Positions 15,114-28,738 of a DNA stretch of 64,000 bases are shown piece after piece. The stretch is from NCBI GenBank assembly GCA_964535735.1, contig CAZHTM010000001.1, forward strand, positions 89,369-153,368. Reading direction: 5' to 3'. The position numbers were made by a program, and so were the translations under genes. The stretch is from an uncultured bacterium (GTDB lineage Bacteria; Fidelibacterota; Marinisomatia; Marinisomatales; J089). The notes under the pieces are model-generated. The model had not been told where the DNA came from, made no database searches, and was given only the letters and a program-made list of their open reading frames with translations. The number at the start of each line of letters is the position of its first letter. Position 1 is the first letter of the stretch.

Positions 15114-15144
15114 CACCCGGTTGAAATTAGAACGAACGGTTGAT

Positions 15145-15753
15145 ATGACTCTAACTGATAGAAAACTCCGCGAAAAACAGCACCGTATCCAAACTATTTT
15201 GGAAGCGGCCAAGCGCTTGTTTGCCCAAAAAGGGTATCAAGAAACAAGTATGAATGATATTGCCGAGGAAGCAGAACTGGGCAAAGCTACCTTGTATTAC
15301 TATTTTAAATCAAAAGATGATATTTATAGGGAAATTTATTTATCCTACTCACGGACCTATTATGAGTCCATTACTCAGGAAATCCAAAATACATCGACCT
15401 TGGAATCGTTGATTGATGCGATTTTGGTGGGACATGGGAAACAAGGGCAGATGGATCGGGATTTTTTAAGTCTATTGTATCCCATCGGTCGGAACGCACC
15501 GGTTTTTATCTTTAGTGAGCCGGAGGTATTGGCGGTAACCGAAGCCCTAAGAGAACCCATTCGCTTACACATTGAAACGGTGTTTCAACAGGCTGGAATC
15601 CGGACTTCATCGGATATATTTCAAAAAGTGATGTGGAGTTTTATGACCGGTATTGCAGTGAAAATGATCCGCGGCCATGAATGGAAGGACTTGGAACCGG
15701 AAATCCGATTTTTCAAAACCAGTATCATAAACCAATTATTAAAGGAAGTCTGA
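15145..15753 (+). CDS. TetR/AcrR family transcriptional regulator
   Basis: N-terminal HTH ...AKRLFAQKGYQETSMNDIAEEAELGKATLYYYFKSK. ATG 15145 is preferred over the TTG at 15121 given by the ORF track. Confidence 0.85.
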   Translation: MTLTDRKLREKQHRIQTILEAAKRLFAQKGYQETSMNDIAEEAELGKATLYYYFKSKDDIYREIYLSYSRTYYESITQEIQNTSTLESLIDAILVGHGKQGQMDRDFLSLLYPIGRNAPVFIFSEPEVLAVTEALREPIRLHIETVFQQAGIRTSSDIFQKVMWSFMTGIAVKMIRGHEWKDLEPEIRFFKTSIINQLLKEV

Positions 15754-15754
15754 T

Positions 15755-18127
15755 ATGACTTTGACCCGATTTGTTTTAAAACGTCCCGTATTAATCGTGG
15801 GAATTGTTGGTCTGGTTACAGTGCTGTTTTTGCTTCAGATGAAGCATCTCACAATGGATCCGGATATCACCAGCGCCTTACCGAAAAAAATCCCGGCCAA
15901 ACGACTTTATGATCGCATGACGGAGATCTTTCCCACCAAGGAATTTATTTTTCTTGGCATTCAAGGAACGGACATTTTTTCCCCGCAACATTTGCAAGAT
16001 GTTTGGACGTTAACCCAATCGCTGGAACAAGAACCGGAAATTTACAAGGTGATGTCGCCGATGAATGTGAGCATTATTCGGGGAACCGAAGAGGGAATGA
16101 TTGTGGAAGACATTCTGGACGCGCCACCGAAATCAGCTCAGGATATCCAGCGATTTAAAAGTCGACTATTCAACAGTGATTTGGCGTTAGGCAATCTCAT
16201 TTCTCGGGATTCCACAATGTTTGGTATGATGCTGCTGTTAAAGAACACTACGGATGTGGATGACTTTGTTGAGCACTTTATACCCAAGGTGAAAGACTGG
16301 GATAATCAGATGGATCTGAACTTAATCCTGGCAGGAAAACCGGTCGTGAGTCATTATGTTGGTTTAGGAATGCAGCGGGATATGTCCACCTTTTTTATGG
16401 GTGGATTAGGCGTGATCTTTGTGTTATTGCTCATTATTTTCAAAAATCTTAGAGGAATTCTTTTACCCTTGAGTGTGGTTATCCTTTCGGTTATTTGGAC
16501 CATGGGAACCATGGCAATTTTGGGCGTGCCCATGTCGCACTCCACAGAAATCCTGCCCATATTAATTATGGCCATCGCGGTCGCGGATAGTATTCATATC
16601 GTGACCCATTATTATGGCAATGCCCGGAAAATTAAGGATAAGATTGAGCTCACCCGGGCGACCATGGCGGATATGATTTCTCCAGTGATCATGACGTCTT
16701 TGACGACCATGGCGGGATTCTTAGCCTTGGGTACAACCGGCGTCGAATCAATCATGACGCTGGGAATCTTTACATCAGTGGGCGTATTGTATGCCCTCCT
16801 GATCAGTCTCACATTCGTTCCAGCCTGGCTTCGTCTTTTGCCTATTCCGAAACGACTCCAGGCACAGAAAGATGCATCTACAACAGCGCGATTGATGATA
16901 AACTGGGGAAGGGTGTTAAACCAGAATAAACGAGTATTAATTCCGTTTATGATCGTGGTTCTGCTACTGAGTACCTGGGGCTTCAGTCGTCTGAAACATT
17001 CGTTCAGTTCTATCGGGAATTTCCCAGAAGATCACCCAGTCCGAATTGCTCATCAATTAATCAACGACCATTTTGCCGGCACCAATGCTTTTCAGGTCAT
17101 GGTGGAGGGGAAAGAACCGGGCCAAATCAAAGACCCACGGATTTTACGGGATATGGACGGTTTAAAATCGCTTGCCTTACGTCAACCCCATGTAGGATCG
17201 GTTCAATCCCTGGCGGACTTTATCAAACGTATTAACAAAGTACTCCATGAGGATGAGGAGGCATATAATGTCATTCCTAACGATCAGGAAGTGGTGAGCT
17301 ATACGGATTATATTGAGCAGGACGGGGGATGGACAGAGGTGATGGTTCAGGACACCATTCCAGGAAAAGAACTGGTTGCCCAATATCTCACGTTGTATGA
17401 AATGTCGGGGAAACCGGATGACATGGCCAATTTGGTGGACTATAAATACCAGCATGCCAAACTTACTATCCTCATGGATTCTGATGATCAAGCCACGCTA
17501 CGAACCATTGACCGGGTTTTGGATGGTTATATCGACACCCATTTCTCCGATGCGGATGTGGCCGTGACTGGGATGGCGAAGTTGATTTTGGTAGTGGATA
17601 ATTTGATTGTTTCCGGTCAGATCACCAGCATTCTTGTATCCCTATTCCTGGTCTGGTTATTGACCTCATTTATGTTTAAGTCGCCCATAGTGGGATTATT
17701 CAATGCGGTGCCTCTGTTCTTTTCCATTTTGTTAAACTTTATGATTATGGGACTTTCAGGGATTAGGGTTAACCTTGAAACGATGGTTACATCCAGTATT
17801 GCTATTGGAGTTGGAGTCGATTATGCCATTCATTTTATTTATCGATATCGGTTGAAACTGGAGCAGTCCGGTTCCTATGAACAGGCCGTGGTTGATACGA
17901 TGGAAGATTCGGGACTGGCTATTGCGTTTAACAGTTTTGTGGTGGCTGCTGGGTTTGCCGTCATTGCATTATCCCAATTTGTGGCCATCATGGAGATGGG
18001 TGTCCTCATCACCTTAACGATGGCGACTTCGGCCTTTGGTGCGTTGACGGTTTTACCGTTGGTTTTCGTGAATTACCAACCAAAAGCGCTGAAATTGAAA
18101 TCTTCCCAATCAAAGGAAACCAAGTAA
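15755..18127 (+). CDS. MMPL/RND-superfamily exporter (COG1033-type, two 6-TM halves)
   Basis: 790 aa with duplicated TM bundles, each preceded by a large periplasmic loop. Conserved AVADSIH and GVGVDYAIHF motifs. Starts 2 nt after the TetR stop. Confidence 0.85.
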   Translation: MTLTRFVLKRPVLIVGIVGLVTVLFLLQMKHLTMDPDITSALPKKIPAKRLYDRMTEIFPTKEFIFLGIQGTDIFSPQHLQDVWTLTQSLEQEPEIYKVMSPMNVSIIRGTEEGMIVEDILDAPPKSAQDIQRFKSRLFNSDLALGNLISRDSTMFGMMLLLKNTTDVDDFVEHFIPKVKDWDNQMDLNLILAGKPVVSHYVGLGMQRDMSTFFMGGLGVIFVLLLIIFKNLRGILLPLSVVILSVIWTMGTMAILGVPMSHSTEILPILIMAIAVADSIHIVTHYYGNARKIKDKIELTRATMADMISPVIMTSLTTMAGFLALGTTGVESIMTLGIFTSVGVLYALLISLTFVPAWLRLLPIPKRLQAQKDASTTARLMINWGRVLNQNKRVLIPFMIVVLLLSTWGFSRLKHSFSSIGNFPEDHPVRIAHQLINDHFAGTNAFQVMVEGKEPGQIKDPRILRDMDGLKSLALRQPHVGSVQSLADFIKRINKVLHEDEEAYNVIPNDQEVVSYTDYIEQDGGWTEVMVQDTIPGKELVAQYLTLYEMSGKPDDMANLVDYKYQHAKLTILMDSDDQATLRTIDRVLDGYIDTHFSDADVAVTGMAKLILVVDNLIVSGQITSILVSLFLVWLLTSFMFKSPIVGLFNAVPLFFSILLNFMIMGLSGIRVNLETMVTSSIAIGVGVDYAIHFIYRYRLKLEQSGSYEQAVVDTMEDSGLAIAFNSFVVAAGFAVIALSQFVAIMEMGVLITLTMATSAFGALTVLPLVFVNYQPKALKLKSSQSKETK

Positions 18128-18897
18128 TGCGATTCTTCACTGTGATTCTGGCTTTGTCCGGACTAATGATGGCTCAGGATTTAACGGGCTACGACATTAT
18201 GTATCGGGCGCTCAATAAAAAATCCTGGCAGGATATGAAAGCCGACCTTACCCTGACCATGGTGAATGCCCGTGGCGAGGAACGGGTGCGGCAGATCGCT
18301 TTTTATTCCTCGGATAACGCTCAGGGATTAAACCGGATGCTGATGCGATTTATGGCTCCTGCTGATGTGCGCGGGACAGGATTTCTCACCCTGGAAACCT
18401 CCTCCGGCGATGATGAGCGATATCTCTACCTTCCGGCGTTACGCCGGGTCAAAAAAATTGCCGCCAGTGGGAGCGGCGGAAACTTTATGTCCAGTGATTT
18501 TACGTATTATGATATCGGTAAACCAAAATTGGAGGATTGGACGTACACCCTGTTAGGAGAGGAAAAGGTTCAAGGCAAAACGTGCTATAAAATTGAGTGT
18601 CTTCCCATTGATAAACAGGTTTTGAATGATACCGGATATGGAAAAATTATTCGCTGGGTAGAAAAAGAACGTTTAAATACTGTTCAAAGCATCTATTATG
18701 ATAAAAGTCTCGAAGAGTGGAAGCATCTGACGGTCAATCAAACGTTGGAAATTAAAGACATCGATTTTGCTACAGATATGGTGATGGAGGATATTCAAAT
18801 CCAACATCGCAGTCAAATGGTGTTCTCTAACGTGGACGTTGACACCAATATTCCCGACACTTTTTTCAGTATCCGGTATTTGCAACGGGGTCGTTAG
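18127..18897 (+). CDS. outer-membrane lipoprotein-sorting (LolA-like) periplasmic protein
   Basis: Signal peptide plus text typical of the LolA-like partner of COG1033 exporters (YLYLPALRRVKKIAASG...FMSSDFTYYD). TAATG overlap with the exporter gene. Confidence 0.7.
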   Translation: MRFFTVILALSGLMMAQDLTGYDIMYRALNKKSWQDMKADLTLTMVNARGEERVRQIAFYSSDNAQGLNRMLMRFMAPADVRGTGFLTLETSSGDDERYLYLPALRRVKKIAASGSGGNFMSSDFTYYDIGKPKLEDWTYTLLGEEKVQGKTCYKIECLPIDKQVLNDTGYGKIIRWVEKERLNTVQSIYYDKSLEEWKHLTVNQTLEIKDIDFATDMVMEDIQIQHRSQMVFSNVDVDTNIPDTFFSIRYLQRGR

Positions 18898-20138
18898 TGA
18901 AATGGTGGCGTAAAACCGTTGGGCTCATTGTCCTGACCGTCATGGTGTCTGGTCAGTCCTCTTTTGGGGGATACATGAAGGGCTTGGGTTACTATAATCC
19001 TCATTCCGCGTCCTTTGCACGGTTAGGTACCCGATTCCAGGCCCGATGGAGCAATGATAATGGTCGTTCAGGATATTTTGCCGCCTTGAATTTCGAATCT
19101 GATTTTGCTACGATTGCGCAGGATTCTGCAAACCGGAGCCTGTCGACGCCTGATATGCACATAACGCCCGTGGAATTTTATATGGATTATCATTTCTCAT
19201 CGGCTGATTTACGAGTGGGGCAGCAATTCATTTTTTGGGGCGCCACTGATTGGGTGAATCCCACCGATGTTATCAATCCCTGGGATTTTGAGAATCTTTC
19301 CAGTGAAACGGAAGACTATCGAATTCCGGTCCTGGCCGGTTCTCTGATGATGTATTTGGGAAATTATACAATTCAGGCTGTCCTGGTGCCGGCGTTTACC
19401 GCCACAGTAATTCCCATACCACAAGGGACGCATTTGTACCGACCTCCGGTGGACAAAGATCATCTTCAGGGAGGAATCCGGATTCAGAGTTTCGTGGGTG
19501 CCACCGATGTATCGTTCGCCTATTTTTCTGGATTTAATCATTTACCGACATTCCGGTTTACGGGGATGGATTTTTCAACCGGTACGCCGTTCCCAACCTT
19601 TAAGGCCACTTATTCTCGTCAACAGATGGTGGGCGTGGACTTTGTGCGCACGGTAAATCAATTTGCCCTGAAAGGAGAATCCGCATGGCTCATTACACCC
19701 GATAAAAATGGGACCGATATTTTTGAGGACAACGCTTCGGTTGAAACCGTGTTGGGGATGGATTACATCGCGTCGGAAAATTTCAGCCTTAATTTCCAAT
19801 ATATTAACCATACCCTTCTAAAATATTCGCAATCGGAAGAACAAGACCGAATCGATCAAGCCGGTATGACCGGACATTTGATCCCTCCTGAGAAAATGAC
19901 TCATTCCTTCAGTGGCAGACTGGCCTGGGATCCATTTCCCTACATTACCAGTCAGGTAATCGGTGTGTATCATTTGAAAGACCGGGATTCCTTCCTGCTG
20001 GGTTTCTTATCATGGCAACCGCGGGACGCCGTCTCGGTGACGGTTGGGACGGTAATTTTTTCGGGATCGGAATCATCGGAATACGGCCGTCTTGATAATG
20101 AAGATTTGATATTTCTGGAAATTAAACAGTCCTTTTAA
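18897..20138 (+). CDS. probable outer-membrane beta-barrel protein (DUF1302-like partner)
   Basis: GTG start overlapping the upstream stop. Signal peptide, alternating beta-strand pattern, C-terminal ...LEIKQSF (terminal aromatic residue). Confidence 0.5.
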   Translation: MKWWRKTVGLIVLTVMVSGQSSFGGYMKGLGYYNPHSASFARLGTRFQARWSNDNGRSGYFAALNFESDFATIAQDSANRSLSTPDMHITPVEFYMDYHFSSADLRVGQQFIFWGATDWVNPTDVINPWDFENLSSETEDYRIPVLAGSLMMYLGNYTIQAVLVPAFTATVIPIPQGTHLYRPPVDKDHLQGGIRIQSFVGATDVSFAYFSGFNHLPTFRFTGMDFSTGTPFPTFKATYSRQQMVGVDFVRTVNQFALKGESAWLITPDKNGTDIFEDNASVETVLGMDYIASENFSLNFQYINHTLLKYSQSEEQDRIDQAGMTGHLIPPEKMTHSFSGRLAWDPFPYITSQVIGVYHLKDRDSFLLGFLSWQPRDAVSVTVGTVIFSGSESSEYGRLDNEDLIFLEIKQSF

Positions 20139-20218
20139 GTCCATGAAAAGGGCGTTAATTTTCCTGTGGAGTGGGGCAGATAAGTCCCACCTATTTTCTT
20201 TACAAAGGTTGTGAATAC

Positions 20219-21088
20219 ATGAAGGTAGTGCATCGAATTTTAATCATTATTATGGCTCTAGTTGTCGCCGGAGCGATCGTTTGGTCACTGGATAATGCCG
20301 GGAGTTATTATCTGGCTTCAAGTTTGGAACGGCCTCACATGGAGGCGCATAAACTATGGAAACCGGGTGGGCTCTATGGTCACGGGTTAGGCATTATCGG
20401 ATCTTTGATGATCATGCTATTACTCACATACTCAGCACGAAAGCGAATTCGTCGATTTCGGCGCTGGGGTAGGCTGCCAAACTGGTTAAACTATCACATC
20501 TTTTTAGGTATTTCAGGACCATTACTGATTACCCTTCACACATCCTTCAAATTTGGCGGTTTGGTTTCTATTTCTTATTGGTCGATGATGGCGGTGATGC
20601 TGAGCGGGTTTATCGGGCGATATATTTACGTGAAAATTCCCCGGAAAATAAACGGTGAGGAAATGACCCGAAAAGAATTTGAAGCTCATAATGAAGAATT
20701 AAAGGCTCAGTTGGTACAACAATTTCAATTGTCCGCGAATCAGTTAGCCTTGGTTGAGAAAATCGGTGGGGTGGATAAAATAAAGGAACGTGGTCTCCTG
20801 GGAATATTCACTTTTTTCATTATGGATTTATTTAATTGGATTACTCTTAGACGAATTAGCCATCTTGTTTTTAAATCCGCTTCTGTTCCGAAAAAACAGC
20901 GAAAAGAATTTCATCGTTTATTAAGTCAGCGGGTCAAGAGTTCTCGACGGATTGCCTTTCTCCAGGCCGCACAAAAATTATTCCACTATTGGCATGTTAT
21001 TCATAAACCCTTTGCCTATACAATGATTGTGATCATGATTATTCACGTGGCAATGGCCATTACGCTTGGGTATACGTGGATTTTTTAA
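20219..21088 (+). CDS. integral membrane protein, predicted di-haem b (ferric-reductase/NOX-like transmembrane electron carrier)
   Basis: Two TM helices each carry an H-x13-H pair: YHIFLGISGPLLITLH (His codons 20495 and 20537) and IHKPFAYTMIVIMIIH (21002 and 21044). ATG 20219 is preferred over 20171. Confidence 0.5.
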   Translation: MKVVHRILIIIMALVVAGAIVWSLDNAGSYYLASSLERPHMEAHKLWKPGGLYGHGLGIIGSLMIMLLLTYSARKRIRRFRRWGRLPNWLNYHIFLGISGPLLITLHTSFKFGGLVSISYWSMMAVMLSGFIGRYIYVKIPRKINGEEMTRKEFEAHNEELKAQLVQQFQLSANQLALVEKIGGVDKIKERGLLGIFTFFIMDLFNWITLRRISHLVFKSASVPKKQRKEFHRLLSQRVKSSRRIAFLQAAQKLFHYWHVIHKPFAYTMIVIMIIHVAMAITLGYTWIF

Positions 21089-21089
21089 C

Positions 21090-22403
21090 ATGACCATGGA
21101 CAGTATCATCACCTACGGCATCGGTCTGATTATTATTTTGATATTTTTAGTTCCCTACATAATAAGCATGCGAAAAAATGAAAGACGCACGAGGGAACGG
21201 TTGGCGGAGAGTCAATCCAAAGGACAGGCAAAGCCGCTTCTGCAGCATCCCATTATCAATCAATCGGTGTGTATCGGCTGTGGGATTTGCGTCACCAGTT
21301 GCCCGGAAGGGGACGTCCTGGGTTTGATTAATGGAAAAGCCACCATTATTCATGGGAGTCATTGTGTCGGTCATGGACTTTGTGCGGAGAATTGTCCCAT
21401 CGGGGCGATCGAGGTTGGATTGGGCGACATTAGCGAACGTGAAGATATTCCCCGTCTTACAGATCAATTCGAAACCAACATTCCTGGAATTTATATCGTA
21501 GGTGAATTAAGTGGCATGGCATTGATCCGCAATGCCATAACCCACGGAGTGACAGCCATGAATGCCATCGCTGAATCGCTAAACGGGGCACCGGGTTTGG
21601 ATACATCCGTAGCGATTATTGGCGCCGGACCTTCCGGTCTGTCCGCTGCTTTAAAAGCCAAAGAATTGGGCATTGATTTTCAAATTCTAGATCAAGATAA
21701 ACCTGGAGGGACGATCCTACAATATCCCCGGAAAAAACTGACCTTGGTCCAGCGAGTGACCATACCCCTCTATGGTGATTTAACCCGCGGGGAATATACA
21801 AAGGAAGAATTGCTGGATATTTGGGAGTCGATGATTGAAAAGAATGCCATTGATTTGAAGACGGGACACAAACTGCTGGGTGTGGAACGAAATGATACCG
21901 GTTTTAAGATAAAAACATCCAAAGGGGAGTTGACCGCGGAGAAAGTGATCTTAGCCCTGGGACGGCGGGGTACACCGCGGAAATTGAATGTCCCTGGTGA
22001 AGATTTGGGCAAAGTGATGTATAAACTCATGGATGCGGAAACCTATAAGAACAATCACATTCTTGTAGTGGGAGGCGGCGATAGCGCCATCGAGGCAGCA
22101 ATTGGATTGGCCAGCCAAGCCGGGAACACGGTAACCATCTCGTATCGAAAAGAGCATTTCTTTCGTCTCAAAGCGCGAAATGAAAAAAATATTGAGCTCT
22201 TCATGAATGAGAAGAAATTGGATGTTATCTTCTCCTCGAATGTGAAGGAGATTACTCCGGATTCAGTCAGTGTAGCCATCGGCGAAGAGGTCAAAACGAT
22301 ACCCAATGATTACGTCTTTATTTTTGCAGGTGGTGAATTACCCTTCCCCTTATTGGATTCCATCGGGATTGATTTTGGCAAAAAAATCCGTGCGAAAGTG
22401 TGA
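21090..22403 (+). CDS. membrane-anchored 2x[4Fe-4S] ferredoxin-domain NAD(P)/FAD-dependent oxidoreductase
   Basis: N-terminal TM helix followed by RKNERRTRER. CIGCGICVTSCP and CVGHGLCAENCP. Rossmann motifs IIGAGPSGLSAA and VVGGGDSAIEAA. Starts 1 nt after the upstream stop. Confidence 0.75.
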   Translation: MTMDSIITYGIGLIIILIFLVPYIISMRKNERRTRERLAESQSKGQAKPLLQHPIINQSVCIGCGICVTSCPEGDVLGLINGKATIIHGSHCVGHGLCAENCPIGAIEVGLGDISEREDIPRLTDQFETNIPGIYIVGELSGMALIRNAITHGVTAMNAIAESLNGAPGLDTSVAIIGAGPSGLSAALKAKELGIDFQILDQDKPGGTILQYPRKKLTLVQRVTIPLYGDLTRGEYTKEELLDIWESMIEKNAIDLKTGHKLLGVERNDTGFKIKTSKGELTAEKVILALGRRGTPRKLNVPGEDLGKVMYKLMDAETYKNNHILVVGGGDSAIEAAIGLASQAGNTVTISYRKEHFFRLKARNEKNIELFMNEKKLDVIFSSNVKEITPDSVSVAIGEEVKTIPNDYVFIFAGGELPFPLLDSIGIDFGKKIRAKV

Positions 22404-22404
22404 G

Positions 22405-23817
22405 ATGATGAAAAAAACTCTGTTTTTCTGTCTCTGTTTATTCGTTCCCTGGCAAGTCTTTGGCCAGTTTAGTCCCGGTAAATTATCCCGGTATCATGCG
22501 GAGTTGGAGGGTACATCCAATTGTATTCAATGCCATGATATAGGGAAGAAGGAAGTCTCGGATGGTTGTCAAAAATGCCATACTCCTTTATTAAAACGGA
22601 TTAAGGAAAAGACAGGATATCATGCGGATAAGGCCGATGGATGTAAAGATTGCCATTCCGACCATAACGGAAGAGAATTTGAATTGGTGTATTGGCCTAA
22701 GAACATTAAAAACTTTAATCACAACGAAACCGGATACACACTTTCAGGGAAACACCGGGATGCGAAATGTCGTGATTGTCACCAGCCAAAATATATTCAG
22801 GATAAGGAATTAATAAAATGGGCGGGTGAACATCCTCAGTTTAATATCATGGATCGAACATTTTTAGGATTGGGGACGGAATGTCTGACCTGCCATGAGG
22901 ATGTGCACAGGGATGAAGTATCCGATGACTGCACAAAATGCCATAATACATTTGATTGGAAAAAAGCCGCCGACGAATTTGATCATAACCAGGCGCGTTT
23001 TCTGTTGACCGGTGCTCACGAAAAAGTGAAGTGTGGGAAATGCCATAAAATCCCTGACAATACAAAAAAAGTATGGCAATTAACAGGGATGGCCTTTGAT
23101 CAGTGCGGGCGGTGTCATGACGATGTACATAAGGGCAGTTTTGGATCAACCTGCGAACGGTGCCACACAACAGTGGATTGGAAAAAGAACCAGAAACGGT
23201 TCGATCACAACAGTACCAAGTATCCTCTAGTGGGAAAACATGTCAACGTAGCATGTCAGGATTGTCACACACCTCAATTGCAAGGAACCTTACCCAAATT
23301 TGATTTGTGTAGTCGCTGCCATGCTGACGAACATGATGGCCAGTTCCTGACACGAGCGGAAGGTGGTGAATGTTCTCAATGCCATACAGTGTATGCCTTT
23401 AAGCCCACGACCTTTACAATGTCCATGCATCAAGCCATTCGCTTTACATTGGAGGGCGCGCATCGTGCTGTACCCTGTATCGCCTGCCACAAACCGTACA
23501 TGAAAAAGGACGGAAATACAACAGTGAGATTTACGTGGACGAATCTCCAGTGCACTACCTGTCATAAAGATGAACACAGGAATCAATTTCAGGCGCATTT
23601 TAATAATTCCTGTGATAAATGTCATACAGTCATAACATTTTCACAGATTAACTTTGATCATCAGGCAACCACTTTTCCCTTGGATGGGAAACATCAAAAC
23701 GTCCCTTGCGAAAAATGTCACTTCAAAGAAACCGATTCAGTAGGAGAGTATATTCGATATTATCCAGTAGCCCATCGCTGTGTGGATTGTCACTCCATCA
23801 CCGATCAAATACAGTAA
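22405..23817 (+). CDS. multihaem c-type cytochrome, 17 CxxCH, built from c7-like trihaem units
   Basis: Signal peptide MMKKTLFFCLCLFVPWQVFG. 17 CxxCH counted in the translation. Repeated unit CxxCH-D-H...CxxCH...W...F-H....L-G-H....CxxCH. The ATG immediately follows the upstream TGA. Confidence 0.9.
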   Translation: MMKKTLFFCLCLFVPWQVFGQFSPGKLSRYHAELEGTSNCIQCHDIGKKEVSDGCQKCHTPLLKRIKEKTGYHADKADGCKDCHSDHNGREFELVYWPKNIKNFNHNETGYTLSGKHRDAKCRDCHQPKYIQDKELIKWAGEHPQFNIMDRTFLGLGTECLTCHEDVHRDEVSDDCTKCHNTFDWKKAADEFDHNQARFLLTGAHEKVKCGKCHKIPDNTKKVWQLTGMAFDQCGRCHDDVHKGSFGSTCERCHTTVDWKKNQKRFDHNSTKYPLVGKHVNVACQDCHTPQLQGTLPKFDLCSRCHADEHDGQFLTRAEGGECSQCHTVYAFKPTTFTMSMHQAIRFTLEGAHRAVPCIACHKPYMKKDGNTTVRFTWTNLQCTTCHKDEHRNQFQAHFNNSCDKCHTVITFSQINFDHQATTFPLDGKHQNVPCEKCHFKETDSVGEYIRYYPVAHRCVDCHSITDQIQ

Positions 23818-23833
23818 GGGATCAAAACCGACC

Positions 23834-26374
23834 GTGAACCGATATTTCATCCGGATTCTCGGAGTTCTCTCCCTGGGGATAATATTGTCTGTTGCGCTTG
23901 GACAACAATCCGCCATCGAAGTGAGTGGGTATGATTGTGGTGATTGTCATGGGGCTACCGGTTGGGATATCCTTGAATTCTCAGGTTTTTCCCACCAAAG
24001 CACAGGATTTCTATTAGAAGGCGCTCACGCGGCCCAACCATGTTATGCCTGCCATACGGGAAATACTTTGAGTGAGAAGCATCAATTTCAAGACGTGAAT
24101 ACAGTCTGTTCTTCCTGCCATCTGGATATCCACCAATCCACGTTGGGAGAGGATTGTACTTTTTGTCATGAATTCACCAGTTGGCAAGTAACCCAGAAGA
24201 CCTTTAACCACGAAACCACCCGGTTTCCTTTACAAGGCGCCCATCGGGGAATCGCCTGTGATCAATGCCATACGGAACATCCCATGACGCGCTTTGATTT
24301 TGTGGACACGGATTGTTTTGCCTGTCATCAAACAGATTATAATCGGGCGTTGAATCCTTCACATGTTTTGGCTCGTTTTAACCGGGATTGTCGGATCTGC
24401 CACACCGATCATCGGGCTGGGTGGCGGCCTTCCTTGTTTGATCATGCCGATACCGATTTTCTACTGACCGGAGTGCACATTGTTACGGAATGCGCTGAAT
24501 GTCATATAAATGGCCAATTTGAAGACACTCCTGAGTCCTGTCAGGCGGCCAATTGCCACTTCAACGATTTCCAAACCACCGATTCACCCAACCACATGAT
24601 CTATGGATATCCGGAGCAATATTGTGAAGAATGTCATGTAACCTTAGGATGGACGCCTTCTATTTACACGCATACCATTGATTATGCGTGCAGTTCTTGT
24701 CATATCCCCGATTTTCAGAATGCGCTTAATCCGATCCATAACGTTGAAAATGGATTTAGCACCAATTGTGAAGGATGTCATGTCGACGTAGAATCGTGGG
24801 CCGGGGCAACCTTCGATCATAGCAACGTTGAAATAGGTTCATGCGCCTCCTGCCATTTATCGAATTATAACGCCACCACCAGCCCTAACCATTCTGCTGC
24901 TGGATTTTCTACAAATTGTACATTATGTCATCAATCTACGTCCGATTGGCAACAGGTTCTTTTCGACCATGATCCTGCAATCACTATTCCGTGTTCGGAC
25001 TGCCATATGTCGGATTATAACGAGACCGCATCCAATCCTTCCATACCAAATCATGTGGATTCCGGTTTTTCCACCGATTGTACTCAGTGTCACACATCCA
25101 CATCTGATTGGGCTCAAATAAACTTCGACCATACGTCGGTGAGCATACCCTGCGCGGACTGTCATATGCCCGATTACAATAATTTACCTAACGCTACCTA
25201 TCCTAATGCGCCGAATCACGCTGAACTGGGTTTAACCACCGATTGTACGATCTGCCACAATTCCACGTCCGATTGGACCGACGTTACCTTCAGTCATACT
25301 TCGGTGGACAACCTTCCTTGCGCCGACTGTCATTTGAATCAGTATAATAATACCACTGATCCTGATCATGGCGCTTCCGGGTTTACCACCGACTGTACCC
25401 AGTGCCATACGTCAACATCGGATTGGACACAAGTGAACTTTGATCATAATCTGGTGACCGTTCCTTGCGCCGATTGCCACATGCCGGACTACAATAACAC
25501 CGCCAATTCGTCCAATCCCGATGTTCCCAATCATGTGGATTCAGGATTTACTACTGATTGCACACAATGCCATGTGTCCACATCGGACTGGTCGCAGGTT
25601 GATTTTAACCATGCCACGGTGACCGCGCCTTGCGCCGACTGTCACATGCCCGATTACAATAATTTACCGAACGCTACCTATCCCGACGCCCCGAATCATG
25701 CTGATTTAGGACTATCCACCGATTGTACGATCTGCCACAATTCCACGACTGACTGGACGGATGTTACTTTCACCCATACTTCAGTATCCGATATCCCTTG
25801 TGCTGATTGTCATTTAAATCAATATAACAACACAACCGACCCTAATCATTCCGCTTCCGGATTTTCCACGGATTGTACGCTTTGTCATAATTCCACATCC
25901 GACTGGTTAGATGTCACGTTTGATCATAGCAATATTTCACAACCCTGTGCTGATTGCCATTTGGAAGATTATAATTCAGCTATAAATCCGAATCACATTT
26001 CTCAGCAATACCCCACGACCTGTGAAGATTGTCACACAACTACTTCCTGGACTCCGGCCGACTTCGATCATGACACCCAGTATTTTCCCATATATTCTGG
26101 TAAGCATGATAATGAATGGTCCACATGCACAGCAGAATGCCATATCAACCCTTCTGAGTATTCCGTATTCTCCTGTGGATTAAATGGCGTATGCCATGAA
26201 CATGATCGGGCTAGCATGGACGATAAGCACCAGGGTGAGGTTAGTGGATATGTGTACGAAAGCAATGCCTGTTACAATTGTCACCCTGATGGGACAGAAG
26301 AAGGAGGGGATGGCGATGAAGGGGGTGATATCATCCGTGACTGGCGGGACCATATCAAGCGAATTCGGAAATAG
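23834..26374 (+). CDS. giant multihaem c-type cytochrome, 28 canonical CxxCH plus CX4CH and CX3CH variants; paired-CXXCH module array
   Basis: A GTG 23834 start gives signal-like VNRYFIRILGVLSLGIILSVALGQQ (the ORF-track ATG 23780 would overlap the upstream gene). Motifs were counted directly in the translation. Confidence 0.9.
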   Translation: MNRYFIRILGVLSLGIILSVALGQQSAIEVSGYDCGDCHGATGWDILEFSGFSHQSTGFLLEGAHAAQPCYACHTGNTLSEKHQFQDVNTVCSSCHLDIHQSTLGEDCTFCHEFTSWQVTQKTFNHETTRFPLQGAHRGIACDQCHTEHPMTRFDFVDTDCFACHQTDYNRALNPSHVLARFNRDCRICHTDHRAGWRPSLFDHADTDFLLTGVHIVTECAECHINGQFEDTPESCQAANCHFNDFQTTDSPNHMIYGYPEQYCEECHVTLGWTPSIYTHTIDYACSSCHIPDFQNALNPIHNVENGFSTNCEGCHVDVESWAGATFDHSNVEIGSCASCHLSNYNATTSPNHSAAGFSTNCTLCHQSTSDWQQVLFDHDPAITIPCSDCHMSDYNETASNPSIPNHVDSGFSTDCTQCHTSTSDWAQINFDHTSVSIPCADCHMPDYNNLPNATYPNAPNHAELGLTTDCTICHNSTSDWTDVTFSHTSVDNLPCADCHLNQYNNTTDPDHGASGFTTDCTQCHTSTSDWTQVNFDHNLVTVPCADCHMPDYNNTANSSNPDVPNHVDSGFTTDCTQCHVSTSDWSQVDFNHATVTAPCADCHMPDYNNLPNATYPDAPNHADLGLSTDCTICHNSTTDWTDVTFTHTSVSDIPCADCHLNQYNNTTDPNHSASGFSTDCTLCHNSTSDWLDVTFDHSNISQPCADCHLEDYNSAINPNHISQQYPTTCEDCHTTTSWTPADFDHDTQYFPIYSGKHDNEWSTCTAECHINPSEYSVFSCGLNGVCHEHDRASMDDKHQGEVSGYVYESNACYNCHPDGTEEGGDGDEGGDIIRDWRDHIKRIRK
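25151..25945 (+). repeat. in-frame tandem duplication inside the 28-haem gene (480-bp / 160-aa six-haem period)
   Basis: Modules A (25151-25318), B (25319-25465) and C (25466-25630), then A' (25631-25798) and B' (25799-25945). tgcgc.gactgtca.atgcccgattacaataattta recurs exactly 480 bp apart. Confidence 0.85.
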
Positions 26375-26377
26375 AGT

Positions 26378-27196
26378 ATGTCGTATTCAGCGATTATTCT
26401 CATGGTTGTATTGGCTGGAAGTCCTCAATTGGAATTGACCGATATACCTTGTTCTAAATGTCACACTCCCGATGCCTGGATTCCTCTAAATACCAATCGG
26501 ACATTTAATCATTCCAGGGATACACTATTTCCCCTTGAAGGTCGCCATCGTGATGCCGATTGTCTTCAATGCCATCCTGGTGAAACAACGGTAGAAATTC
26601 ATGCATTTGCCAAAGCCCGGCCCGAGTGTACAACCTGCCACATGGATATCCACATGAATCAACTCGGATCGGAATGTGATCGATGCCACACAACAGAAAC
26701 TTGGGACATGAGCCGGTGGACGAATAATCATAGTCATACAATTTTTACATTGGATGGGATGCACGCGTCCCTGGAATGCCGGGACTGTCATGGCATCAAT
26801 TTTGACCGTCTGGCAGGTCAACTAACGACAGATTGTTATATGTGCCATCAGCAAAGTTTTGTGGCTGCGATCAATGCTATCGATCTCGATCATCCTGAAA
26901 ATCAAAATTGCCGCTTATGTCACAATAGTCGTGCCTGGGTTCCTATTGATATGTCGCAGCACGATTCCCTATTTCCCATTTATTCAGGAGCACATAGAGG
27001 AAAGTGGACCACCTGTAAAGCTGAATGCCATATTGATCCGACCAATTACCAATTATTTTCTTGCGGCCTGAACGGTGTATGTCATGAACATGACAAGGAT
27101 AAAATGGACCAAAAGCACCTGGGGGAAGTAAGTAATTATAGTTACAATAGCTCCAGATGTTATGATTGTCATAGCAGCGGTGGAGGAGGCGATTAA
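26378..27196 (+). CDS. octahaem c-type cytochrome (8 CxxCH + CX3CH), periplasmic
   Basis: Signal-like N-terminus. 8 CxxCH counted. The C-terminal ~75 aa are paralogous to the C-terminus of the 28-haem protein. Starts 4 nt after the upstream stop. Confidence 0.9.
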   Translation: MSYSAIILMVVLAGSPQLELTDIPCSKCHTPDAWIPLNTNRTFNHSRDTLFPLEGRHRDADCLQCHPGETTVEIHAFAKARPECTTCHMDIHMNQLGSECDRCHTTETWDMSRWTNNHSHTIFTLDGMHASLECRDCHGINFDRLAGQLTTDCYMCHQQSFVAAINAIDLDHPENQNCRLCHNSRAWVPIDMSQHDSLFPIYSGAHRGKWTTCKAECHIDPTNYQLFSCGLNGVCHEHDKDKMDQKHLGEVSNYSYNSSRCYDCHSSGGGGD

Positions 27197-28738
27197 ATGA
27201 AATTTTTCAGTTTATGTGTAAGTCTACTAATCCTAAGCTCATTGGGTTGGTCTCAGGAACGGGTGGTAATCGACGTGAATGGCAAAATCACCTACTTAAC
27301 TACCGATCAAGTGTATTGCGATGTGGGCACTGAAGTGGGTGTGGAAGAAGGGGATACCCTTCATGTTACTCGGGGAGTCGACGAAATCGGATTGGTAGTG
27401 GTTACGTATATATCCCGAAAGTCCAGTGTTTGCGAGCCCTTGGTTCCTGCTGAGACTTTTCGATTGGGAGACCGGGTCCATCTGAAGAAAGTCAAACTGG
27501 TGACTATAGAAGAGACAACGGTAACACCGGCTCAAGTAAAGGAGGTCTCTCCCGTCAGTAAAAGACTGGGCCTAGCTCATACAGGCAATTTTTCGTTCCG
27601 CTATACCTATGGACAGTTTGCAGATAGTCTGTATAGTCAACGGAGTATCGCCTCTATCCAATACGGAATACACATATCCAATCCCATTGAAACCCAATTT
27701 TGGTTGTATGGGCGTTCCAATATACAGAACCGGGATTTCACACTTTACCAGGCACGGTGGGTTTTGGGGAAAGAGGACAGCCGCTTTAACGGTCAGCTCG
27801 GCAGAGTTTATTCTGCTTCTTTGTCCGGGATTGGAGCTACCGATGGTTTGTTGGTGAATTCGGCGTTATCGGAACGCCTATCAGCTGGTTTTTTAGTGGG
27901 GATGGAACCGGAACCCACCACACTTAAGTTTAATTCCAATGTCAAAAAAGGGGGTATTTTTACCCGGTTTGAGACGAAAGGGGAAAAACGATCTTTTGAG
28001 GGAAGTCTGGCTTTGGTGGGCCAATATGCCAGTGGGAAGGCTGATCGAGAATTCATATACGACCGTCTGCGATATCGAAATGGGCGACGACTGTATTTTA
28101 CCATGAACCAGACTATTGACTTATATCGAAATGGTCCTGTCGGCGGCCGGAAAGGGATTGAACTGGTGTCCAATCAACTATCACTTCGGGTGCGGGTCAC
28201 ATCATTTTTAAGTGTCTATACCCGACTCTCCAACCGGAAACAAATCCTTTACCAGGTTTCAAGTTCTTCGCTCCCGGATTCGCTGTTTGTAGATGAAACT
28301 CGGTCAGGCTGGTACAACGCCATTCGGTGGACGACAAAAGGGGACCGGTCGTTTCTCCTGGGAGCCAATTACCGGTATCAATCAGTAGGTGGTAGTAACT
28401 CAATCTATGCGTTTTTCACCTATCGCGGACCCTATTCCCGCGGGCGATGGAATTTTGATTATACCGGCAGCTACATTCACAATTTGCTGATTACTGGTAC
28501 ACGCAATCAATTCGGCTTCTCCCGGACTATAGGGAAGACGGGAACGTTCTTTACCGAATACGAGCTCTATGTGTATGGATATGGCAATATCATGACAGAT
28601 TATGTTCAACATAATATTACGTCCACCTATTCATGGAGATTGCAGTCCCGGATGGTAATAACCGCATCATTGGATGCGACGATTGATAAGGATTATTATT
28701 TCTATTATTTGTATTTCGGATTTAATTACCGGTTTTAG
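27197..28738 (+). CDS. outer-membrane beta-barrel protein with N-terminal soluble domain (porin-like partner of the cytochromes)
   Basis: The ATG abuts the upstream TAA. Signal peptide MKFFSLCVSLLILSSLGWSQ. Long amphipathic beta-strand pattern rich in Y/G/R/N/S. C-terminus YLYFGFNYRF (OMP-type terminal Phe). Confidence 0.6.
   Translation: MKFFSLCVSLLILSSLGWSQERVVIDVNGKITYLTTDQVYCDVGTEVGVEEGDTLHVTRGVDEIGLVVVTYISRKSSVCEPLVPAETFRLGDRVHLKKVKLVTIEETTVTPAQVKEVSPVSKRLGLAHTGNFSFRYTYGQFADSLYSQRSIASIQYGIHISNPIETQFWLYGRSNIQNRDFTLYQARWVLGKEDSRFNGQLGRVYSASLSGIGATDGLLVNSALSERLSAGFLVGMEPEPTTLKFNSNVKKGGIFTRFETKGEKRSFEGSLALVGQYASGKADREFIYDRLRYRNGRRLYFTMNQTIDLYRNGPVGGRKGIELVSNQLSLRVRVTSFLSVYTRLSNRKQILYQVSSSSLPDSLFVDETRSGWYNAIRWTTKGDRSFLLGANYRYQSVGGSNSIYAFFTYRGPYSRGRWNFDYTGSYIHNLLITGTRNQFGFSRTIGKTGTFFTEYELYVYGYGNIMTDYVQHNITSTYSWRLQSRMVITASLDATIDKDYYFYYLYFGFNYRF

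Follow-up and report, generated by a model that had tools for sequence, protein, structure and literature searches.

How would electrons cross the inner membrane at a locus that is rich in multihaem cytochromes? Outside Shewanella and Geobacter, this crossing is, in our assessment, among the less understood steps of extracellular electron transfer. The question is raised by a stretch of 64,000 nucleotides, the window hereafter, from an uncultured bacterium of the Fidelibacterota (assembly GCA_964535735.1, contig CAZHTM010000001.1, positions 89,369 to 153,368). A gene at 20219-21088 of the window encodes a small membrane protein and is followed by genes for a Fe-S flavoprotein, three multihaem c-type cytochromes, and an outer-membrane barrel. 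As judged from its sequence, the small protein is probably a five-helix cytochrome b of the inner membrane with two haems b. In the wider explanation proposed here, it passes electrons from the flavoprotein to the conduit of multihaem cytochromes and barrel; to this explanation as a whole we give a probability of about 0.6.

Four histidines on two predicted membrane helices

The gene, the elements of its product, and the hairpin ahead of it are listed below (TM, transmembrane helix; AF2, AlphaFold2; pLDDT, predicted local distance difference test).

20219-21088, forward strand: gene of a putative dihaem cytochrome b ('IMP' class), 289 residues, five TM helices, inner membrane (list of open reading frames; AF2 model, pLDDT 86)
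20483-20542, forward strand: TM3 with W89-x3-H93-x13-H107 (H93 and H107 in 72 of 72 relatives, W89 in 68 of 72)
20603-20617, forward strand: SGxxG motif of TM4, S129-G130-F-I-G133 (G130 and G133 in 72 of 72, S129 in 70 of 72)
20630-20989, forward strand: cytoplasmic helical insert of about 120 residues, rich in Lys and Arg, between TM4 and TM5 (AF2 helices, Lys+Arg counts)
20990-21067, forward strand: TM5 with W258-x3-H262-x13-H276 (all three in 72 of 72 relatives)
20171-20190, forward strand: terminator-like hairpin with a T-rich tail, between the upstream DUF1302 gene and ATG 20219 (consensus match only)

A sequence-only reading of the window had reported two helices, each with a His pair at an exact H-x13-H spacing. 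The DNA agreed with this report. Codons for His lie at 20495-20497 (CAC), 20537-20539 (CAC), 21002-21004 (CAT), and 21044-21046 (CAC), all in frame with the open reading frame 20171/20219-21088, and the peptides YHIFLGISGPLLITLH and IHKPFAYTMIVIMIIH were found in its translation. Numbered from ATG 20219, the four residues are H93, H107, H262, and H276, and the members of each pair are 14 codons apart (H93-x13-H107 and H262-x13-H276). ATG 20219 is the most likely start codon because relatives are almost all about 289 residues long, the public gene calls agree (the same 289-residue frame, with the same start, is called in two public assemblies), and the other candidate, GTG 20171, lies inside the terminator-like hairpin. 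GTG 20171 was dropped on these grounds.

The spacing had been put forward as the signature of bis-haem-b ligation. It is exact, but in a single sequence it is not significant alone: the protein contains 13 His residues, with only two H-x13-H pairs among them, and two or more such pairs appeared in 8.7% of 20,000 residue shuffles. The case therefore rests on conservation. A word-indexed search yielded 887 relatives of the 289-residue protein, and an exhaustive search yielded 3073 cluster representatives (50% identity clusters) at E <= 1e-3. The four His were invariant in 57 of 57 close relatives (41-83% identity). Among 72 representatives at 27-55% identity, nine columns were invariant: G58, Y71, H93, H107, G130, G133, W258, H262, and H276. 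Two distant proteobacterial proteins at 21% identity, Sphingobium WP_037469326 and Alteromonas WP_156079166, retain all four His, SGxxG, and W258. An alignment of homologues had been named as the check on the His pairs, and the four residues were kept in all aligned relatives, down to 21-27% identity.

The same pattern was seen across the family. Two H-x13-H motifs, 140-200 residues apart, were present in 221 of 230 full-length family proteins, the extended form W-x3-H-x13-H occurred twice in 214 of 230, and SGxxG was found in 229 of 230. The nine proteins without both H-x13-H motifs matched the query over its N-terminal part only; they are probably truncated or frame-shifted gene calls, and four other proteins of this kind were inspected directly. 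The small residues of SGxxG on TM4 probably let a haem pack against that helix.

Two further conserved regions were noted. At 20984-21004 (residues 256-262), H259 (69 of 72) and W258 (72 of 72) lie one turn below H262. At 20297-20383 (residues 27-55), a periplasmic loop of the pattern YY..RPH...H..KPGG..GHG is conserved, with R38 and P39 invariant among close relatives. H259, W258, and the loop residues may be contacts for haem propionates or for a docking partner.

The predicted topology has five TM helices, with the N-terminus inside and the C-terminus outside. It is based on AF2 secondary structure, hydropathy, positive-inside Lys/Arg counts, and family-wide hydropathy. The AF2 model of the 289-residue protein (pLDDT 86; predicted template-modelling score, pTM, 0.72) contains helices at residues 2-32, 52-74, 86-108, and 114-138, a helical region, and then one long helix at residues 225-282; TM5 extends from this long cytoplasmic helix, and the protein terminates six residues past TM5. 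Lys and Arg together number 8 in the TM2-TM3 loop, 23 between TM4 and TM5, 13 in residues 211-257, 3 and 1 in the periplasmic loops, and 0 in the C-terminal tail. The family means over the 72 sequences are similar, with 5.8 for the TM2-TM3 loop, 10.6 for residues 211-257, and 2.9 and 1.1 for the periplasmic loops.

The sequence-only reading had argued from basic loops that both His helices run in-to-out, with one His of each pair near each membrane face. Helix prediction, hydropathy, and positive-inside counts all led to the same arrangement for TM3 and TM5. The basic stretch SARKRIRRFRRWGR (residues 72-85) abuts the first His helix on its N-terminal side; KKQRKEFHRLLSQRVKSSRR (residues 222-241) lies about 17 residues ahead of the hydrophobic start of the second, within the long predicted helix 225-282. 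Since TM3 and TM5 are both predicted to run in-to-out, H93 and H262 would lie near the cytoplasmic face and H107 and H276 near the periplasmic face. H93 and H262 are predicted to lie roughly one helical turn inside the membrane from the cytoplasmic face, with H107 and H276 fourteen residues (about 21 Å) further out; a step of 14 residues returns the side chain to within about 40° of the same helix face. H93 of TM3 and H262 of TM5 would thus ligate one haem near the cytoplasmic face, and H107 and H276 would ligate a second haem near the periplasmic face, about 20 Å from the first.

A topology with six TM helices, in which residues 192-210 would form the additional helix, was considered and rejected. 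The segment has a hydropathy of 1.67 in the window protein, but it is not hydrophobic family-wide (median of the maximum 19-residue hydropathy in this region, 0.93 in 72 sequences), and a loop with 10-13 Lys/Arg residues would land in the periplasm. The insert of about 120 residues is accordingly placed in the cytoplasm by the five-helix prediction, where it may serve as a docking surface for the flavoprotein.

The gene module and its flavoprotein

Five genes follow at 21090-28738, on the same strand as the cytochrome b gene and nearly without gaps.

21090-22403, forward strand: partner flavoprotein with an N-terminal TM anchor, a 2x[4Fe-4S] ferredoxin domain, and a thioredoxin reductase (TrxR)-like FAD/NAD(P)H domain, Pyr_redox_3 (Pfam)
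22405-23817, forward strand: multihaem cytochrome c with a signal peptide and 17 CxxCH motifs (Pfam, motif count)
23780-26374, forward strand: large multihaem cytochrome c with 28 CxxCH motifs (motif count)
26378-27196, forward strand: multihaem cytochrome c with 8 CxxCH motifs (motif count)
27197-28738, forward strand: outer-membrane protein with a signal peptide, a small N-terminal beta domain, and a 22-strand beta-barrel, ending in ...NYRF (AF2, Foldseek)
After the barrel gene: rpsB-tsf-pyrH-frr

The linkage of these genes to the cytochrome b gene is not confined to the window. At least 579 loci were matched in species-level genomes; 80 loci were examined with the window proteins, and 32 of them, from many phyla, had enough flanking sequence. 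In these well-flanked loci, the flavoprotein and the multihaem cytochromes MHC1 and MHC2 were present in 32 of 32, the barrel in 30, and the 8-haem cytochrome in 10. The flavoprotein gene changes its position (after the barrel gene in 16 loci, just after the cytochrome b gene in 10, and just before it in 6) and is never lost. The most constant neighbour of the cytochrome b gene is the 17-haem cytochrome, a homologue of which lies at most 4.5 kb downstream in 45 of 46 loci; this protein is likely the periplasmic acceptor.

The flavin domain of the partner is closest, among solved structures, to the NADPH-dependent YpdA/Bdr (7a7b, E = 1.7e-30), to TrxR, and to TrxR-type ferredoxin-NADP reductases (FNR). 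Across 60 homologues, no Cys is conserved except in the two Fe-S motifs, which argues that the flavoprotein has no redox-active disulfide. An N-terminal TM anchor lies about 36 residues before the Fe-S domain in 56 of the 60 homologues and would therefore hold the clusters at the membrane surface. The second ferredoxin motif reads C-x2-H-x2-C-x3-C-P (residues 100-111, with the open reading frame numbered from 21066), and its His is invariant in the 60 homologues. This His suggests that one [4Fe-4S] cluster is His-ligated; such clusters are often located at electron exit points. Of the 60 homologues, only 63% retain the second Cys of the first motif, and a [3Fe-4S] cluster is possible in some members.

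In distant branches of the family, the partner has another fold. The Alteromonas branch has FAD_binding_6, NAD_binding_1, and Fer2 domains behind a TM anchor, and the Sphingobium branch has Pyr_redox_3, cNMP-binding, and Fer4 domains; both stand beside a multihaem cytochrome c. This recurrence of an NAD(P)H/Fe-S partner with different folds is the best argument that the electrons come from a cytoplasmic NAD(P)H dehydrogenase and not from quinol. On an Alteromonas macleodii plasmid (5851-10570), a distant member is flanked by two genes, one for a cytochrome c of about 264 residues and one for an FNR-like Fe-S flavoprotein with a TM anchor, whose N-terminal region is periplasmic and rich in Met; the group is directly upstream of a [NiFe]-hydrogenase operon.

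From these elements, a path can be proposed. The membrane-anchored flavoprotein would oxidize NAD(P)H on its FAD and would pass the electrons via its two Fe-S clusters to the inner haem b of the membrane protein. They would then cross the membrane from the inner to the outer haem, and move on to the 17-haem periplasmic cytochrome, to the 28-haem and 8-haem cytochromes with the 22-strand barrel, and to an external acceptor. Overall, this would be an NADPH-oxidase-like path divided over two polypeptides, which feeds a porin-cytochrome conduit without need of the quinone pool. Of these points, the analysis itself established the His motif with its conservation, the topology, and the linkage of the genes; the binding of haem, contact between the flavoprotein and the membrane protein, the direction of flow, and freedom from quinones are inferred. 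We judge the chance that the route is both driven by NAD(P)H and independent of quinone to be close to even.

The carriers of the family belong to Marinimicrobia/Fidelibacterota, Calditrichota, KSB1, Ignavibacteria, Bacteroidota, Gemmatimonadota, Zixibacteria, Krumholzibacteria, Acidobacteriota, Fibrobacteres, and Lentisphaeria. In the cultured Bacteroidota strain Emticicia oligotrophica DSM 17448, the complete five-gene module is located on the 100-kb plasmid pEMTOL02 (NC_018749.1, 81299-89995), directly after a fused ccsA gene of cytochrome c biogenesis; its membrane protein (WP_015031196.1) bears only the label hypothetical. That a plasmid carries the module hints at horizontal spread. Four relatives of the membrane protein (P0226, P0242, P0234, and P0217) appeared to be fused to cytochrome c, Fer2, or Pyr_redox_3. 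They were set aside as frame-shifted or chimeric calls on high-GC contigs: all contain long low-complexity Arg/Pro-rich stretches, which are typical of out-of-frame translation of high-GC DNA. Since they look like broken calls, they would indicate adjacency at most and are not Rosetta-stone fusions.

The barrel protein has no Pfam match. Its AF2 model (pLDDT 83.6) has 22 strands, and Foldseek aligned it to usher and porin barrels with E of about 1e-8. At 27197-27500 (residues 22-101), it carries a conserved N-terminal beta domain of about 80 residues, in which T32, Y33, G44, G52, and R59 are invariant, and a disordered linker connects this domain to the barrel. This domain could plug the barrel or dock a cytochrome on the periplasmic side. 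The 8-haem and 28-haem cytochromes are paralogues, the former shortened, with 32% identity over the N-terminal 270 residues. The two share a C-terminal module of about 65 residues with about 70% identity (FPIYSG.H..W.TC.AECHI.P..Y..FSCGLNGVCHEHD...), which contains non-canonical Cys/His patterns. Tandem Repeats Finder detected no tandem repeats in the DNA of the 28-haem gene.

Upstream of the hairpin, at 15121-20138, lies a module of a TetR regulator, an MMPL/RND-type transporter, a LolA_like protein, and a DUF1302 barrel-like protein. It was considered as part of the same system and rejected, since it is absent from the homologous loci and the terminator-like hairpin stands between. The hairpin at 20171-20190 is probably the boundary of the upstream unit, in keeping with the absence of synteny between the upstream and downstream modules. 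The sequence-only reading had suggested that the membrane protein may be the inner-membrane electron wire of the operon. This description suits the downstream cytochrome/porin module and does not extend to the upstream MMPL/LolA/DUF1302 genes.

Relation to known cytochromes b

The protein had also been called otherwise unannotatable. It indeed carries no Pfam or NCBIfam annotation, but it is not unknown, as its motif set was described by He, Barco, Emerson & Roden in 2017 (PMC5566968). Their 'IMP' of the PCC3/PCC4 porin-cytochrome clusters is about 300 residues long, spans the membrane with five helices, and bears SGxxG in TM4 and W-x3-H-x13-H in both TM3 and TM5; it was likened to the ferric-reductase domain (FRD), and two b haems were proposed. 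Further clusters, in which an IMP is combined with a multihaem cytochrome c and a redox protein, are given in their Supplementary Table 6. Proteobacterial proteins from clusters of this composition, those of Sphingobium and Alteromonas noted above, align at 21% identity with their motifs retained. The window protein, compared by motif and description, has a similar size, five TM helices, SGxxG, both W-x3-H-x13-H motifs, and a setting of porin and multihaem genes. This motif-for-motif match makes it a new member of the predicted kind.

The gene clusters are also alike in part. PCC3 and the present cluster both combine a hypothetical IMP, a porin, and cytochromes of the periplasm and the cell exterior that are rich in haem, with medians of about 21 and 34 haem motifs in PCC3 and 17 and 28 motifs here. 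PCC3 was described as four genes without a flavoprotein, with electrons passing to the quinone pool, whereas the present cluster always includes a TM-anchored 2x[4Fe-4S]/FAD NAD(P)H oxidoreductase. The IMP class was described in Proteobacteria and Planctomycetes, and the present family is found in Marinimicrobia/Fidelibacterota, Calditrichota, Bacteroidota, and others. Three points are thus new relative to PMC5566968: the taxa, the NAD(P)H Fe-S flavoprotein as an obligatory partner, and, favoured by this partner, a reading in which the path is independent of quinone. As late as 2025, the function of PCC3 was described as unverified (PMC12442390). In the literature, we found no report of a biochemical test of the IMP kind, no follow-up of the motif beyond He et al. 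2017 and the papers citing PCC3, and no paper on the cluster in Marinimicrobia or the other carrier lineages.

Several results weigh against a dihaem cytochrome b that feeds the conduit from NAD(P)H. NCBIfam gave no match for the window protein, and no curated Pfam threshold was reached: DUF4405 (PF14358) scored 17.7 bits against a cut-off of 26.7 (E = 0.005, residues 236-279). A Foldseek search of the PDB with the whole AF2 model returned no match below E = 2 and no NOX, STEAP, or cytochrome b, and the cytoplasmic insert may mask the helix bundle in such a search. A profile search of PDB sequences returned coiled-coil noise only. By hhalign, the comparison with Escherichia coli MsrQ was not significant (E = 0.2, probability 0.3%), an MsrQ alignment of low diversity (Neff 1.4; listed homologues almost all >=84% identical, one 77%) gave no match, and the comparison with E. 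coli YodB was not significant. The helix count is five, against six in the FRD. By our own reasoning, moreover, export of electrons from NAD(P)H dissipates the membrane potential and conserves no energy itself. Finally, gene context cannot settle whether a quinone site is present, and He et al. favoured a quinone-linked role.

The sub-threshold Pfam matches of the 72 relatives are nevertheless far from random. DUF4405 was matched by 33 (E up to 0.1, best E = 5.7e-6), Ferric_reduct (PF01794) by 17 (best E = 1.5e-4), Ni_hydr_CYTB (PF01292) by 16, and PepSY_TM by 3, and every other family by 1; the window protein itself matched neither PF01794 nor PF01292. All four recurrent families are haem-b membrane proteins. 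The non-significant local hhalign alignment places H262 and H276 on H151 and H164 of MsrQ, the TM5 positions discussed in PMC12525009. With five helices and no significant match, membership in the FRD, DUF4405, or cytochrome b561-type families is not demonstrable, but the protein most probably works like these families.

Proteins of the FRD superfamily PF01794 (NOX/DUOX, fungal FRE, SpNOX, MsrQ, and STEAP) resemble the window protein in the His pairs on in-to-out TM3 and TM5, with one haem per face as proposed here. The proposed route is also alike, from NAD(P)H to a cytoplasmic flavin and outwards, and the pair of MsrQ and the soluble reductase Fre is a precedent for a split system. The window protein differs in its five helices, in the 120-residue cytoplasmic insert between TM4 and TM5, and in the lack of a significant sequence match, or of a fold match for the whole model. 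Its partner is a TrxR-like flavoprotein with two Fe-S clusters instead of FNR-like FAD_binding_8/NAD_binding_6 domains, and its predicted acceptor is a multihaem cytochrome c instead of O2, Fe(III) chelates, or MsrP.

A similar mixture is seen with DUF4405 (PF14358), PepSY_TM, and FezC. These bacterial membrane proteins are small and contain four highly conserved, centrally placed His residues, and haem b was shown to bind to purified DUF4405 and FezC (PMC11334425). DUF4405 proteins differ from the window protein in that they have six TM helices and are linked to ApbE flavinylation, and the match of the window protein to this family is sub-threshold. No ApbE or FMN-binding domain was found among the scanned genes of the window cluster.

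The Hmc/Tmc complexes of Desulfovibrio and CbcBA/CbcL of Geobacter also move electrons across the inner membrane, by means of a dihaem cytochrome b in the membrane and a multihaem cytochrome c on its periplasmic side, and Hmc/Tmc add a cytoplasmic Fe-S protein. Unlike the window protein, the cytochromes b of these complexes resemble NarI or HydC/FdnI, and their His residues are spaced differently. The cytoplasmic partners in Hmc/Tmc are HdrD-like Fe-S proteins, not NAD(P)H flavoproteins, and CbcBA/CbcL are thought to be quinol oxidases.

Source and direction of the electrons

The strongest rival explanation concerns the electron donor. The protein might be a quinone-linked cytochrome b, that is, a (mena)quinol:multihaem-cytochrome oxidoreductase, with the flavoprotein as an additional input or in a regulatory side role. 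Where the entry of electrons into extracellular transfer has been characterised at the inner membrane, it is mostly through quinol oxidases, and a link to quinone has been proposed for CbcBA and CbcL of Geobacter. He et al. drew the IMP of PCC3/PCC4 as quinone-reactive (PMC5566968), MsrQ unexpectedly binds ubiquinone (PMC12525009), and the 16 relatives with weak matches to Ni_hydr_CYTB point to a family of quinone-reactive cytochromes b. On the sequence side, no quinone-site motif can be defined. The flavoprotein is the main obstacle to this explanation, as it occurs in all 32 well-flanked loci, is anchored in 56 of 60 homologues, and is replaced by other NAD(P)H flavoproteins in the distant branches. 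To our knowledge, no such NAD(P)H flavoprotein partner occurs in the known quinol:cytochrome c oxidases. We therefore regard a quinol donor as unlikely, though it is the most serious of the alternatives.

The same two haems could also be run inwards, with external electrons passing through the cytochromes and the haems b to the Fe-S flavoprotein and on to NAD(P)+ or another cytoplasmic acceptor. A periplasmic multihaem cytochrome, a cytochrome b, and a cytoplasmic Fe-S protein are indeed combined in this way in Hmc/Tmc of sulfate reducers. Fe(II) oxidisers possess PCC3 clusters, which encode a membrane protein of this kind, and the IMP gene of one PCC3 copy was up-regulated during iron oxidation (PMC12442390). 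By our own reasoning, however, electron import opposes the membrane potential, and reduction of NAD(P)+ at -320 mV would need a donor at or below about -450 mV, which excludes ordinary Fe(II); a disulfide as the cytoplasmic acceptor is unlikely as well, given that the flavin domain has no conserved Cys. Inward flow is thus improbable, and we infer outward flow because the membrane potential favours it and the reverse would need a donor of very low potential.

Much less probable still is that the protein is not a cytochrome at all, and that its His residues hold a metal ion or a haem that is being transferred, as in a transporter or a maturation helper for the approximately 53 downstream c-type haems, which might reduce haem or pass it on. 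Cytochrome c biogenesis proteins such as CcmF and CcsBA do this with conserved TM His residues, the gene stands directly after ccsA on the Emticicia oligotrophica plasmid, and the protein has an additional conserved His (H259, 69 of 72) and a His-rich periplasmic loop. The ccsA neighbour is known from one locus, ccsA not being among the genes searched in the 80-locus survey. Two parallel helices with an exact x13 spacing and a third helix with SGxxG make up the pattern of a haem-b bundle, the recurrent weak family matches are all to haem-b cytochromes, and a permanent NAD(P)H flavoprotein partner suits electron transfer more than transport.

With the dihaem cytochrome b between flavoprotein and conduit retained as the preferred explanation, its boldest form can be stated. 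The locus may encode a complete quinone-bypassing wire from NAD(P)H to the exterior, made of a TrxR-like flavoprotein with two Fe-S clusters, a five-helix dihaem cytochrome b whose fold is other than the canonical FRD, about 50 c-type haems, and a 22-strand barrel. It would act as a redox valve that conserves no energy, in fermentative or microaerophilic bacteria that dump electrons on minerals, humics, or partner cells. A route that would dissipate, and not build, the proton-motive force fits such a valve. We put this complete picture forward tentatively, with odds somewhat below even.

The family is large, with 3073 cluster representatives and at least 579 loci in species-level genomes of about a dozen phyla, and it is without Pfam or NCBIfam annotation. 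The idea of such a protein is not itself new, but Emticicia oligotrophica DSM 17448, with the cluster on a plasmid, is a cultured carrier in which the family is testable. If the proposal is true, this would be the second bacterial NOX-type path that is split over separate proteins, after MsrQ-Fre, and surveys that trace iron and manganese cycling by genes would acquire a usable marker for the inner membrane. In many uncultured lineages of the sea and of sediments (Marinimicrobia, Calditrichota, Zixibacteria, Krumholzibacteria, and others), a simple respiratory bypass would then connect the cytoplasmic redox balance to external minerals.

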